Shown piece after piece: positions 8,592 through 18,324 of a stretch of DNA of 32,000 bases. The notes beneath the pieces were generated by a model. It was not told the origin of the DNA. It was given only the letters and a program-made list of their open reading frames with translations, and did no database searches. Each line of letters opens with the position of its first letter. The first letter of the stretch is position 1. The stretch is from Alkanindiges sp. WGS2144 (GTDB lineage Bacteria > Pseudomonadota > Gammaproteobacteria > Pseudomonadales > Moraxellaceae). The stretch lies in NCBI RefSeq assembly GCF_043950625.1, contig NZ_CP171007.1; one strand, written 5' to 3'. The position numbers were made by a program, and so were the translations under genes.

Positions 8592-8633
8592 ACCTCAGCA
8601 GGTGTGTATTTTCTCAAGAGGCAACTATAGTCA

Positions 8634-9440
8634 TTATGGTTGCGAGTCTGTGGTAAATGATTTAAAAGGTGGACGACTATGCAAAACCCCTCTCTGCCTT
8701 GCCTCCTTAACACTATCAATCATCACAATATCACCAAGCCCCCCAACAGGCTGATCAATGACTTTACCCTCTTGCTGTGCTTTTAAGCGTTCCGTCGCTC
8801 TTAAAAACAGTACACGACCGTCCACATCATCGGATAAAAATTGAGGTGGAGTTTTCGTGACCCAAATGGTTTCAGCAACTTGTGAAACCTCAGCGAGTAT
8901 TTGAGCGCCTGAATTCCCACCACCCACAACGATGACTTTCTTACCTTTAAATGGGTCTGCATTCATGTAATGGGCTGAATGTAACTGTGTACCTTGAAAG
9001 TTTTCTTGTCCCGGATAATCAGGAATAAACGGCTGGCTCCATGTCCCGGTTGCACTAACCACGGCCTTGGCTCGCCAAAACTTTTCTCCAGCATATACGT
9101 CTAAATACTTTCCATTCGATTCCACACGATCGACATGTACTGGACGAACAATCGGAAATTGATATCTCTGTTCATAAGCCGATAAATACTGAATCACCTC
9201 ATTTCGTGTTGGATAGGTCTGTTCAGTGATGGGCATCATCCAACCGGATAGAGAACTCCAGGTATTAGGAGAAAAAAGACGCAATGACTCCCAGGTATGC
9301 AGCCAGGCACCCCCTGCTTGATTTTGCTCATCCAATATAATGAATGGGATTTTCTTGCGCTTTAAAAAATAAGCAGTAGATAAAGCAGCCTGTCCACCAC
9401 CTATAATGATGACATCTGTTTCCGTCTGTTTCTGGTTCAA
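8634..9440 (-). CDS. arsO: ArsO-like NAD(P)/FAD-dependent flavin monooxygenase, probably 3-prime truncated
   Basis: It has a TTG start. The first dinucleotide fold is [11 protein letters not shown], followed by an FMO-like [11 protein letters not shown] and a second fold, [14 protein letters not shown]. Only ~86 residues follow the second fold, and the ORF ends exactly at the island border. Confidence 0.6.
8636..8643. repeat. left copy of the 8-bp direct repeat ATGGTTGC (putative target-site duplication)
   Basis: The identical octamer recurs at 18226-18233, immediately outside the IS end. Confidence 0.65.
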
Positions 9441-9483
9441 CGCCTTTTCCCCTTTTGTTTTTTATATCTGATTTCTTTAGTGC

Positions 9484-9512
9484 AAAAACCCAATCATGAA
9501 GACTGGGTTTTT
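9484..9512 (-). terminator. candidate bidirectional rho-independent terminator after trxB
   Basis: The hairpin is AAAAACCCA, an 11-nt loop, then TGGGTTTTT. It lies 37 nt downstream of the trxB stop, with A- and T-runs on either side. Confidence 0.45.
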
Positions 9513-9548
9513 ACATTTATTCACTTTTTCAATTATGACAACCTACCA

Positions 9549-10502
9549 TCAATTCAGATTATCAAGATATTTTTCAGCATCAAGTGCAGCCATACAGCCT
9601 GAACCTGCCGAAGTAATCGCTTGACGGTAAACGCTGTCAGCAATATCACCCGCAGCAAATACACCCGGAACAGATGCAGCAGTCGCATTACCTGCCGTAC
9701 CGCTTTGAACCTGAATATAACCATCACGAAGGTTCAACTGACCTTCAAACATGCCGCTATTCGGTTTATGACCAATGGCAACAAATAAGCCAGTAACTTC
9801 TACATCTTGTTTAGAGCCATCTTGGGTAGATTGCAGGCGAACTGCAGTTACACCTGACGTTCTGTCACCAAGAACTTCGTCCACTTGATGATTCCAAGTG
9901 ATGCTGATTTTACCTTCTTTCTCTTTCTCGAACAGATGATCTTGAAGAATTTTTTCTGCACGTAAAGAGTCACGACGGTGAACTAGAGTCACGTGTGAAG
10001 CAATGTTGGATAGATAAAGGGCTTCTTCAACAGCAGTGTTGCCACCACCCACAACCATAACTTTTTGGTTTTTGTAGAAGAAACCATCACAGGTTGCACA
10101 AGCACTTACACCTTGACCCATAAATGCAGCTTCAGAGTCAAGGCCTAAATATTGCGCTGTAGCACCCGTTGCAATAATCAGGGCATCACAAGTGAACTCT
10201 TCCATATCACCTTTCAGAACGAATGGACGAACGCTTAAATCAACTTCACTGATATGGTCATAGACAATGTTAGTACCAAAGCGTTCAGCATGCGCTTGCA
10301 TACGTTCCATGAGTGCAGGACCAGTTAGACCTTCAGGGTCACCCGGCCAATTGTCGACTTCGGTTGTTGTGGTCAACTGACCACCTAGCTGTAAACCGGC
10401 AATCAGCGTTGGCTTTAAGTTGGCACGTGCAGCATATACAGCTGCGCTATAACCCGCAGGGCCTGAACCTAGAATAATTAATTTAGAATGTCTCTTTTGC
10501 AT
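9549..10502 (-). CDS. trxB: thioredoxin-disulfide reductase
   Basis: The 317-aa protein is colinear with E. coli TrxB. Shared motifs are [24 protein letters not shown], the redox motif [30 protein letters not shown] and [28 protein letters not shown] lies upstream of the ATG, 17 nt after arsH. Confidence 0.92.
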
Positions 10503-10519
10503 TTAATATCACCTAGCGT

Positions 10520-11224
10520 TTACAAACTACGCTGATTCACACGTTTAGATAATTCTTCAGCCGATTCCTTACGTTCAGAATAACGATCTGTCAGGTATTT
10601 GCTTTGACCACGGGTCAGTAGGGTGAACTTAAATAACTCTTCCATCACATCCACAATCCGGTCATAGAAAGCTGAAGGTTTCATTCGTCCATCTTCTTCG
10701 AATTCCAAGAATGCTTTTGGAACTGAGGACTGATTTGGAATGGTGATCATCCGCATCCAACGACCCAAAATACGCATCTGGTTCAGGCTGTTAAATGACT
10801 GTGATCCGCCACTGACTTGCATCAAGGCAAGAGTTTTACCTTGGGTGGCACGGATTGCACCCCCTGCCAGTGGAATCCAGTCTATTTGTGATTTAAAAAT
10901 TGAACTCATAGAACCATGGCGTTCAGGTGAACACCAGACCATGCCTTCTGACCATGCTAAAAGTTCATGCAACTCTTTTACTTTTGGATGCTCAGTATCC
11001 GCATCTTCAGGTAAAGGAAGCCCTTTAGGATGAAAGATTTTTACTTCCGCCCCAAAATGCTCCAGGATTCGACCGGCTTCAAGAACGGCAAGGCGACTGT
11101 AAGAGCGTTCTCGATTCGAGCCGTAAAGGAGCAAAATGCGAGGGGGATGAGCAAGTTCTTTTGCCTGAACTTTTTCAAAAGTCGGTTGCTCAAGAAGATT
11201 AAGATCTACGTTTGGGAGATTCAT
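10520..11224 (-). CDS. arsH: arsenical resistance protein ArsH (NADPH-dependent FMN reductase)
   Basis: The 234-aa protein carries [17 protein letters not shown] and [20 protein letters not shown], which are typical of ArsH. It lies in the ars operon. Confidence 0.88.
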
Positions 11225-16366: not shown

Positions 16367-16459
16367 TTATCTAGACCTATGCTTTTTTCAAAAAATCGGC
16401 ACTGTTGCAAATAACCACGAATGGTAAGCTGAAGACTGTTTTAGCTAAAGGTGCAGCAT

Positions 16460-17119
16460 ATGAATCCTTTCCATGGTCGGCATTTTCAGGGCGAAATCAT
16501 TCTTTGGGCTGTGCGCTGGTATTGTAAATATGGCATTAGCTATCGTGAACTGCAGGAAATGCTGGCCGAACGGGGTGTGAATGTTGATCACACGACTATT
16601 TACCGTTGGGTTCAACGTTATGCTCCTGAAATAGAAAAACGTTTACGCTGGTATTGGCGTAATCCTACAGATCTGAGCTCGTGGCATATTGATGAAACCT
16701 ATGTAAAAGTGAATGGACGATGGTCTTATCTGTATCGTGCAGTCGATCAACGTGGCGATACCATTGATTTTTATCTTCCTTCTAGACGTAATACCAAATC
16801 AGCATATTGTTTTCTTGGAAAAATTTTAAATAATGTGAAGAAGTGGCAAATTCCACAAGTGATCAACACGGATAAAGCACCCACATATGGACGTGCTTTA
16901 TCACGGTTAAAACGGGAAGGTAAATGTCCACCAGACCTTGAGCACAGGCAGATTAAGTATAAAAATAACGTGATTGAATGTGATCATGGCAAGCTAAAGC
17001 GGATCATCAGGGCCACATTAGGATTCAAATCTATGAAGACGGCTTATGCCACAATTAAAGGTATTGAAGTCATGCGTGCACTACGTAAAGGACAAGCATC
17101 GTCATTTTATTATGTGTGA
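16460..17119 (+). pseudogene. tnpA: IS6-family transposase gene truncated at codon ~219 by an IS insertion
   Basis: The protein is identical to the copy-1 transposase up to ...GQASSFYY, then reads V-stop from the inserted element. The missing 3-prime end (GQPQGEVCLINRVFG.) resumes at 18124. Confidence 0.88.
17108..17114. repeat. left 7-bp direct repeat TATTATG flanking the IS481-family element
   Basis: The uninterrupted copy 1 has a single TATTATG at this site. Here it is present on both sides of the insert. Confidence 0.8.
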
Positions 17120-18116
17120 ATACTAGCACTTCCGCTGACATCATAACTTTAGCATAGTTTTTCTTTCAATCGCTCATAGGGTGTTTTTCCATCCATAGCA
17201 GCATGAGGTCTGGCATAGTTATAAAATGCCTCCCATTCCGCTAATTTAGCGTTTAGGTCGACATCATCGGTATAGTTTAATAACTGGTAAAACTCCATCT
17301 TGTCGGTCTTATGAGATCGCTCGACCTTGCCATTATGTTTGGGAGTTCGAGGCTTTATGTACCTATGATGAATTGCTAAATCGTTTAAATGCCAATGAAA
17401 TTTCGATTGGAATTCATGCCCATTATCGGTCTGGATGGTATGAATCCGAAAAGGAAACTTCTCAATAACATAATTGACAAAATCAATCGCATTAGCCTGG
17501 TTGTGCTTTTCATAGATTTTTAGTGCCCTGACTCTGGTTGCATCATCAATCGCAGTGTATTGATATCTTTTAATCCTCTTTCCATCTTGATCTTTGAAAA
17601 ATAAGAACTTTACATCAACTTGAACATGGTGGCCTGGTACTTGTTTCTCATAGCGCTGAGGAGTAGGAATGGATCGTTTTCGCTGATTCTGGGGCAGCCG
17701 ATTCAGACCATTACGTTTTAAAACGTGATATACACCCGCTGCCGAGATTTTAATTTGATGATAGCGCCATAAGTACCAACTGATCCTTACCTGCCCAAAA
17801 TGATAATGCTGACGTAAATGAAGAATCTTCTCTTCAATGGCAGGAGGCGTGCGTAACTTGGGATTTTCTGGACAGGGCTTGCTGTTGATTAGCCCAGATT
17901 CACCTTTAGTTTGGTAATTCTTTTTCCAACGATAGAAAGTATCTCGTGAAATACCAAAATAACGACAGGTGAAAGCAATATTCCCACTGTGCTCTGCATG
18001 AGCAAATACTTTTAATTTATGGGCGATTTCCCGCTGGGCTTTTGTACTCAAAATCGAAACTCCTGTGACATGAGGTAAAATTTACCAAAATGTCAGTAGA
18101 AGTCTCAATTTTCACA
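17115..18116 (-). mobile_element. IS481-family insertion sequence, 1002 bp
   Basis: The 26-bp imperfect IRs have TGT...ACA termini: TGTGAATACTAGCACTTCCGCTGACA at 17115-17140 and TGTCAGTAGAAGTCTCAATTTTCACA at 18091-18116. They match at 19 of 26 positions. There is a single DDE transposase ORF and a 7-bp duplication. Confidence 0.85.
17149..18051 (-). CDS. IS481-family DDE transposase/integrase
   Basis: The 300-aa protein has a TTG start. It has an N-terminal HTH (FGISRDTFYRWKKNY) and an rve-type core (VQVDVKF...TDNGHEF...HNGKVERSH). Confidence 0.85.
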   Translation of the reverse strand: MSTKAQREIAHKLKVFAHAEHSGNIAFTCRYFGISRDTFYRWKKNYQTKGESGLINSKPCPENPKLRTPPAIEEKILHLRQHYHFGQVRISWYLWRYHQIKISAAGVYHVLKRNGLNRLPQNQRKRSIPTPQRYEKQVPGHHVQVDVKFLFFKDQDGKRIKRYQYTAIDDATRVRALKIYEKHNQANAIDFVNYVIEKFPFRIHTIQTDNGHEFQSKFHWHLNDLAIHHRYIKPRTPKHNGKVERSHKTDKMEFYQLLNYTDDVDLNAKLAEWEAFYNYARPHAAMDGKTPYERLKEKLC

Positions 18117-18123
18117 TATTATG
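18117..18123. repeat. right 7-bp direct repeat TATTATG flanking the IS481-family element
   Basis: See 17108-17114. Confidence 0.8.
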
Positions 18124-18225
18124 GTCAGCCTCAGGGTGAAGTGTGTCTAATCAACAGGGTTTTCGGTCTCTAAGTACTTTTTAAAGGGAACATCATCGAC
18201 TCAAATCTCTATTTGCAACAGTGCC

Positions 18226-18233
18226 ATGGTTGC
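18226..18233. repeat. right copy of the 8-bp direct repeat ATGGTTGC
   Basis: It directly abuts the IS6-family IR at 18225. It is followed by C and a T7 run, which complete the split terminator. Confidence 0.65.
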
Positions 18234-18324
18234 CTTTTTTTATGGCTGCCGTCTGACCTTAATGCATTGAAATAATGTTAAAACTGTCCTCTACCGCTAA
18301 AGTAGCGGTGTTCCTGCTAAACGG

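Follow-up and report, generated by a model that had tools for sequence, protein, structure and literature searches.

The window analysed here, a stretch of 32,000 nucleotides from Alkanindiges sp. WGS2144 (contig NZ_CP171007.1), contains an inserted segment of 9,582 bp (8644-18225) that carries an arsenic resistance (ars) operon, a cadmium (cad) module and two copies of IS1006, an insertion sequence (IS) of the IS26 family. This island is foreign DNA from an Acinetobacter-plasmid source. Its borders are exact, it is bracketed by a real 8-bp duplication, ATGGTTGC, at 8636-8643 and 18226-18233, and the gene arsO is cut at its border. The right border is a perfect IS1006 terminal repeat with its last base at 18225; the left border falls inside arsO, with no IS end at the joint 8643/8644. 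The reading favoured for this arrangement, with a probability of roughly 0.55, is one transposase-catalysed insertion of the whole 9,582 bp, in which the genuine outer repeat of one IS1006 copy (copy B) was paired with an arsO sequence resembling an inverted repeat (IR). Taken singly, IS1006, the ars operon (a common one in Acinetobacter) and the cad module (likewise common) are ordinary components. The features that define the two borders are the following:

8636-8643, plus strand: left copy of the 8-bp target duplication ATGGTTGC, read from the sequence.
18226-18233, plus strand: right copy of the same target duplication, ATGGTTGC, read from the sequence.
8644-8659, plus strand: candidate IR-like surrogate left end, GAGTCTGTGGTAAATG, matching the IS1006 repeat at 10 of 16 positions.
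8634-9440, minus strand: arsO', a 3'-truncated arsO, matching positions 1-259 of 346 in the profile NF040505.

The initial annotation had placed the octamer at both borders, the right copy directly outside the terminal repeat that ends at 18225, and both coordinates are confirmed. The duplication is exactly 8 bp long, as the bases beyond it are unlike (T/C before and G/C after), and 8 bp is the length typical of the IS26 family (PMC7885326). A duplication of the kind made by IS6/IS26-family elements thus surrounds the whole block of IS and passenger DNA. By itself, the recurrence of an 8-mer is not significant: ATGGTTGC occurs four times in the window against 2.05 expected, and a recurrence within 9.6 kb has a chance of ~0.15. 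The repeat counts as meaningful because both copies sit exactly at independently defined borders, namely position 8644, where plasmid homology starts, and position 18225, where the IS repeat ends. An 8-bp match at two independently fixed borders has a probability of 4^-8, or ~1.5e-5.

A chance repeat or an assembly artefact is accordingly barely credible as an explanation. Repeated octamers within ~10 kb are fairly common, as the count of four against 2.05 illustrates, but the exact position of the copies and the rebuilding of an orthologous terminator described below both speak against chance. An artefact is opposed by a separate short-read assembly, the Logan assembly of SRR30887707, which is continuous through fimV-ATGGTTGC-arsO' and from the IS repeat into ATGGTTGC-ansA, with junctions identical to those of the window; it may, however, derive from the same isolate and hence not be independent. 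These two assemblies make up the known carriers of the island, which represent one strain only.

The origin of the island and the reality of the arsO truncation follow from comparison with plasmids. The same ars operon is present at 97-99.7% DNA identity on the Acinetobacter plasmids PK01, A. indicus pXG-160kb, A. schindleri pBDT2091-4 and A. radioresistens pAR1, and the GC content of the island is 34-44% against 45-51% in the flanks. In every case, the plasmid homology to the window begins exactly at 8644, and the donor reads CCAAATGATA up to the break and GAGTCTGTGG after it. The plasmid arsO measures 1,092 nt and runs 295 nt past the window's break to its stop, whereas arsO' keeps 797 nt of native sequence (8644-9440), ends in two codons and a stop supplied by the chromosomal copy of the duplication, and falls short of a full-length match to the 346 positions of NF040505. 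In a search of 5.8 billion proteins, almost all ArsO homologues among the matches listed were 350-385 aa long, and none of these ended at the window's break. Given where plasmid homology starts and how long the homologues are, the truncation is real and coincides exactly with the island border. The initial annotation had placed the left border in a 3'-truncated arsO and proposed this alignment of homologues; both the claim and the outcome that it anticipated are borne out.

It had also called for a donor in which full-length arsO continues leftward past 8644. Such loci exist on the Acinetobacter plasmids, although none has the end seen here. Each of the 17 PLSDB records with a match to the arsO 3' region passes the window's break point without interruption, and arsO is full-length leftward of that point in three metagenome contigs and at all plasmid loci. 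In three A. johnsonii plasmids (NZ_CP079794.1, NZ_CP068198.1 and NZ_CP070867.1), arsO is cut elsewhere: the match starts 69 bp further left than the break in the window, on the side of the arsO stop. In contigs with identical TrxB, arsO is full-length or limited by the contig end, and the truncated ArsO sequence was absent from the protein cluster collection searched. Microhomology between donor and chromosome was considered as the cause of the left joint and rejected, since the donor sequence up to the joint, ending in CAAATGATA, and the chromosomal sequence, ending in ATGGTTGC, share no bases there.

The chromosomal side of the event is a transcription terminator behind fimV, and the features of the target site are the following:

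5805-8591, plus strand: fimV, the chromosomal gene upstream of the site (Pfam FimV_N; synteny asd-fimV-ansA-truA kept in relatives).
8616-8643, plus strand: left part of the split terminator, made up of the 5' arm (8616-8629), the loop (8630-8634) and the 9 nt that open the 3' arm (from folding the joined flanks).
18234-18245, plus strand: remainder of the terminator, with the rest of the 3' arm and the T-run (fold; relatives).
18337-19332, plus strand: the asparaginase gene ansA, chromosomal, downstream of the site (Pfam; exact product in a Logan contig).

When the flanks are joined from 8643 to 18234, they form a stem of 14 pairs (AAGAGGCAACTATA / TATGGTTGCCTTTT) with a GTCAT loop, followed by a T-run; positions 8616-8629 pair with 8635-8643 plus 18234-18238. 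The earlier description of a split rho-independent terminator was correct in that the joined flanks rebuild one, while its 7-bp stem and 13-nt loop proved too modest. The joined hairpin has a folding energy of -22.8 kcal/mol (z = -3.4), and none of 200 shuffled sequences folds as well, whereas the left junction as it stands today folds unremarkably (z = -0.8) and a terminator scan of the present, interrupted sequence found none. A GC-containing stem, a T-run and a conserved position are therefore found together only with the flanks joined.

In all five relatives compared (three Alkanindiges genomes and two Moraxellaceae metagenome-assembled genomes, MAGs), a terminator that reads ...GGCA(A/G)C...GTTGCCTTTTTTG stands unbroken ~25 nt past the fimV stop. 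These relatives share the gene order asd-fimV-ansA-truA and have fimV-ansA spacers of 180-275 bp; the spacer in the window measures 155 bp after removal of the island. The island interrupts a conserved terminator in its 3' arm, 8 bp of which stand on both sides, and the orthology of the split terminator with the five intact ones constitutes, at the sequence level, orthologous empty-site evidence. An empty site had been proposed as a check on the insertion, and these orthologues supply it in part; a same-species empty site was not found. The empty site is predicted to read ...TATGGTTGCCTTTTTTT; the predicted 27-mer was absent from metagenome contigs, and exact-protein look-ups with asparaginase, TruA, FimV and Asd returned only the SRR30887707 Logan assembly, which has the same junctions.

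The best matches to the asparaginase among GTDB species genomes reach ~60% identity and come from three Alkanindiges genomes and two Moraxellaceae MAGs. Against the same five relatives, Asd is 89-91% and TruA 83-87% identical, with FimV and asparaginase at ~60%, and no closer relative was present among the GTDB species genomes scanned. The host is not Acinetobacter, and its lineage appears to be an unsampled member of the Moraxellaceae that has taken up Acinetobacter plasmid DNA. Two further observations concern the target. The reconstructed site (8635-8643 plus 18234-18240) contains GTTGC, the same bases as the IS1006 repeat has at positions 7-11, and GCAAC is present in the other arm of the terminator. 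In addition, with the terminator split, transcription of fimV should now run antisense into arsO', as predicted from the sequence.

Within the island, two IS1006 copies and a nested element of another family were delimited:

13762-14580, minus strand: IS1006 copy A, 819 bp, with an intact transposase (NF033587, E = 8e-83).
16398-17114, plus strand: left 717 bp of IS1006 copy B, with the transposase open reading frame (ORF) cut near its C-terminus; 100% complementary to 13864-14580.
18117-18225, plus strand: right 109 bp of IS1006 copy B, ending in the genuine outer repeat; 99% complementary to 13762-13870.
17115-18116, minus strand: IS481-family element of 1,002 bp, nested in IS1006 copy B (NF033577).

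The repeat GGCACTGTTGCAAATA occurs four times, at 13762 (plus), 14565-14580 (minus), 16398 (plus) and 18210-18225 (minus), and thereby defines the two copies. These repeats are identical to the published IS1006/IS26 repeat of 14-16 bp, GGCACTGTTGCAAA(TA) (PMC7885326), and the element is named IS1006 in plasmid record annotations. Copy B, which spans 16398-18225 in total, amounts to 819 bp without the nested element and differs from copy A by 1 nt; the size and transposase agree with those of IS1006, which has ~820 bp and a single DDE transposase of ~234 aa. The initial annotation had recognised two IS copies in the block but missed that they are mutually inverted and that copy B is interrupted by an IS481-family element. 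Its statement that only one genuine IS end exists is true of the outer borders, where the left one alone lacks an end, and not of the block, which contains four genuine IS1006 ends.

Neither copy has an 8-bp duplication of its own. The flanks of copy A (CACAGTTC and AAATAGAT) and those of copy B (AAAAAATC and ATGGTTGC) are unlike each other, which rules out a simple insertion of either copy. The composite formed by copy A, the cad module and copy B also lacks such a duplication and was rejected as the unit moved here, its flanks CACAGTTC and ATGGTTGC being different. In-situ inversion as the source of the inverted IS pair was likewise rejected, as the 8-bp flanks are not reverse complements. 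The IS481-family element has a 7-bp duplication of its own (TATTATG at 17108-17114 and 18117-18123) and ends in TGTGAA...TTCACA, and its borders are fixed by a full-length 82.7% match in an A. baumannii plasmid. It was rejected as the mover of the island, because its repeat starts with TGTGAA and misfits the border. This A. baumannii match, at only 82.7% identity, is also the closest plasmid copy of the element, which may be an unnamed IS.

The left border thus draws attention to the sequence at which arsO is broken. As stated earlier from inspection and now confirmed, GAGTCTGTGGTAAATG, the 16 nt at 8644-8659, agrees with the inward-facing IS repeat at 10 of 16 positions. The match is in register and keeps G1, TGT at positions 6-8 and G10, which are conserved in IS26-family repeats (PMC8477213); of that conserved set, G2 alone is missing. 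The joint lies exactly five bases from TGT, as in the genuine repeat. In IS26-family repeats, TGT at 6-8 and 10G are highly conserved, and for binding by Tnp26, 7G is essential, 10G contributes and the terminal GG is not needed (PMC8477213). In the donor plasmids, GAGTCTGTGGTAAATG is ordinary internal arsO sequence. At least 10 of 16 matches occur at 0.24% of random oriented positions, and at least 10 of 16 together with the core (G1, TGT 6-8, G10) at 0.017-0.027%; the core was picked as a criterion after the sequence had been seen, though on the basis of an independent paper (PMC8477213). Within ~6 kb of donor ars DNA, two sites in the correct orientation combine the core with at least 10 of 16 matches, and one of them is the break. 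One genuine end and a passenger border with partial, in-register repeat similarity are hence both present, as in the use of a surrogate end.

The described reactions of the IS26 family comprise copy-in cointegration, targeted conservative transposition, intramolecular deletion or inversion, and recombination between IS copies, and each of them puts an IS end at every new joint (PMC7885326, PMC7986276). A substitute end is regarded as the best explanation because every such canonical reaction leaves an IS end at each new joint, and because the joint lies exactly five bases from TGT as in a genuine repeat. In the proposed sequence of events, the IS1006 transposase would pair the outer repeat of copy B, ending at 18225, with the degenerate arsO sequence starting at 8644, which we infer to have been recognised and cleaved in register, five bases from TGT. 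Both ends would then be joined to target strands cut 8 bp apart in the fimV terminator. Copy A would have supplied the transposase, or else copy B at a time when the IS481-family element had not yet entered it. If the process was replicative, a cointegrate with two 9.6-kb copies would have formed and been resolved by homologous recombination between them.

The donor would have been a plasmid or a circular unit with cadR-IS1006 and arsO in this order. In pXG-160kb (record 58017-71762), IS1006-CDF-cadR is followed by a 224-bp IS1006-like remnant, a toxin-antitoxin pair, ISNCY, SulP, USP and the full ars operon, so that the cad and ars modules lie within 14 kb in the same relative orientation as in the window. 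An IS-mediated circle from a plasmid of this type would create the junction between ars and copy A at 13761/13762, and on sequence grounds pXG-160kb is a plausible kind of progenitor for the ars-IS1006 junction. The IS1006-CDF-cadR module is widespread on Acinetobacter plasmids, including those of permafrost isolates. A different ars-cad arrangement was observed in the ENA MAG XYa_MAG_32, where, on a 2.9-Mb and possibly chromosomal contig, an identical TrxB and a full-length ArsO adjoin feoB-feoA-CDF-cadR, flanked by several transposase genes.

The same features could be reached by more conventional steps. An ordinary copy-in event with a plasmid or translocatable unit would give ATGGTTGC-IS1006-...-IS1006-ATGGTTGC, after which the left IS would trim into arsO and then be lost exactly, leaving ATGGTTGC-arsO'. 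Copy-in cointegrates and adjacent deletions by the IS are known and frequent reactions of the IS26 family (PMC7885326, PMC7986276), in plasmid PK01 an IS1006 lies only 45 bp past arsO, and both the duplication and the truncation would result from standard steps. The last step, however, demands a deletion of exactly 819 bp on a 1-nt (G) microhomology, and excision is not known for IS26-family elements (PMC7885326). This route would also make the in-register IR-likeness a coincidence (p ~0.002 to 0.0002), and no intermediate of it was found. Loss of a left IS is consequently considered unlikely.

One-ended replicative transposition offers another account of a block in which a genuine end is opposed by a non-IS end and the duplication has the length usual for the family; strand transfer would have started at the right repeat, and replication or processing would have stopped arbitrarily in the donor, without recognition of a second end. 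Arbitrary endpoints of this kind arise in one-ended transposition of single-ended Tn21 and Tn1721 derivatives, and the IS26 family is replicative like the Tn3 family. An arbitrary stop leaves the in-register, IR-like break unexplained, though, and IS26 copy-in is reported to require both ends (PMC8477213). As the route is also not described for the IS26 family in the open-access literature, it is held to be quite improbable.

Homology-facilitated illegitimate recombination is more doubtful still. Herein, a resident IS1006 with its own duplication would have been joined by the plasmid homologously on the right and through the similarity between repeat and arsO on the left. The duplication would then date from a standard earlier event, the 10/16 similarity could serve as interrupted microhomology, and natural transformability is common among Moraxellaceae. 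Crossing over within CTGT or AAAT, which repeat and arsO share, would nevertheless produce a hybrid joint starting with GGCA, whereas the observed joint is of the donor type from position 2 (GAGT). The crossover would thus need to fall on one G, precisely at the edge of the IS.

Several points weigh against insertion by a surrogate end, which the initial annotation had put forward as movement of the whole block by means of a cryptic IR. The evidence comes from one event, seen in one strain. Searches of PLSDB, metagenomes, GTDB genomes and Logan/ENA contigs yielded neither another insertion of the unit nor a donor that ends at the break, nor an empty site from the same species. G2 is absent from the pseudo-end, which also differs at positions 3, 4, 9, 11 and 16. 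In IS26, triple transversions in the repeat abolish copy-in, with frequencies of <1e-10 when GG, 3-5, 9-11 or 12-14 are changed (PMC8477213); if this pseudo-end is used at all, its use must be very rare. The surrogate-end route should be greatly outnumbered by canonical cointegration, and a perfect, correctly oriented IS1006 end at 13762, inside the unit, was left unused. Speculatively, the survival of only an event that took in ars could reflect selection for arsenic resistance, or the inability of the plasmid to replicate in this host. In copy B, moreover, the transposase is now truncated by the nested IS481-family element. Altogether, the structural claims of that proposal stand, and its putative mechanism is retained as the best explanation only. 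The wider proposition, that IS26-family transposases can occasionally pair a genuine end with a degenerate IR-like neighbour and so move a large segment with a normal 8-bp duplication, is rated at about even odds.

Among known systems, the island shares with the pseudo-compound transposons and translocatable units of the IS26 family (IS26, IS1006, IS1008) the 819-bp IS1006 with GGCACTGTTGCAAATA, the 8-bp duplication, a mechanism based on cointegrates and a cargo of metal-resistance genes that stems from Acinetobacter plasmids. Unlike these units, which have two direct IS copies at their borders, it has a left border without an IS, and its internal copies are inverted and lack duplications of their own. 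It is hence not a pseudo-compound transposon, where direct IS copies occupy both outer borders. Nor does it correspond to a translocatable unit inserted by the targeted conservative route, which would have a direct IS on each side and no new duplication; here, a duplication is present and the left IS absent.

The arrangement resembles that of ISEcp1 (IS1380 family), in which a genuine end and a weakly IR-like neighbouring sequence move IS and passenger as one unit with a family-typical duplication, 5 bp in the case of ISEcp1. The ISEcp1 route, in contrast, is frequent and experimentally shown, whereas the present case consists of one inferred event with a second genuine end unused inside the unit. 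With one-ended Tn3-family transposition (Tn21, Tn1721) it has in common a replicative transposase, one genuine repeat, a variable donor end and a target duplication. The variable ends of Tn21 and Tn1721 products, which belong to a different family, are not known to be IR-like, while the end seen here is in register with the repeat. IS91 and ISCR elements depend on an HUH rolling-circle enzyme and are not known to make an 8-bp target duplication. The island differs from them in having no HUH rolling-circle gene, and is similar in that adjacent DNA is moved from a genuine end to a surrogate terminus (PMC9676059). No one-ended, surrogate-end or pseudo-end use by the IS26/IS6 family is reported in the IS6-family review or in open-access full texts. 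Surrogate-end use is thus apparently not described for the IS26 family, with related routes known in ISEcp1 and the Tn3 family.

The remaining cargo consists of a minus-strand ars operon to the left of copy A, and of a CDF gene and cadR between copies A and B:

9549-10502, minus strand: trxB, thioredoxin reductase (TIGR01292).
10520-11224, minus strand: arsH (TIGR02690).
11229-12269, minus strand: acr3, arsenite efflux transporter (TIGR00832).
12275-12760, minus strand: arsC (TIGR02691 and thioredoxin-type NCBIfam models below cut-off; annotated as arsenate reductase ArsC on plasmids).
12753-13106, minus strand: arsR (NF007528, NF033788).
13121-13555, minus strand: arsC, glutaredoxin type (TIGR00014).
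14604-15896, minus strand: CDF-type cation transporter (TIGR01297 below cut-off; 'cation transporter' on many Acinetobacter plasmids).
15914-16366, plus strand: cadR, MerR-family Cd/Pb regulator (TIGR02047).

Current models of the IS26 family allow no movement of an IS by itself, require both ends for copy-in and place a direct IS copy on either side of a passenger. In pathogens, both Gram-negative and Gram-positive, IS26 and its relatives rank among the chief assemblers of resistance regions, and the histories of such regions are traced through 8-bp duplications beside IS ends. The island is a record of arsenic and cadmium genes from Acinetobacter plasmids caught in the chromosome of a poorly sampled Moraxellaceae lineage. 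If the proposed use of a surrogate end is true, segments with a single bounding IS could be mobile, a cause would be at hand for some unexplained truncated genes beside resistance islands, and the rules by which IS26-mediated events are reconstructed would need an extra case.

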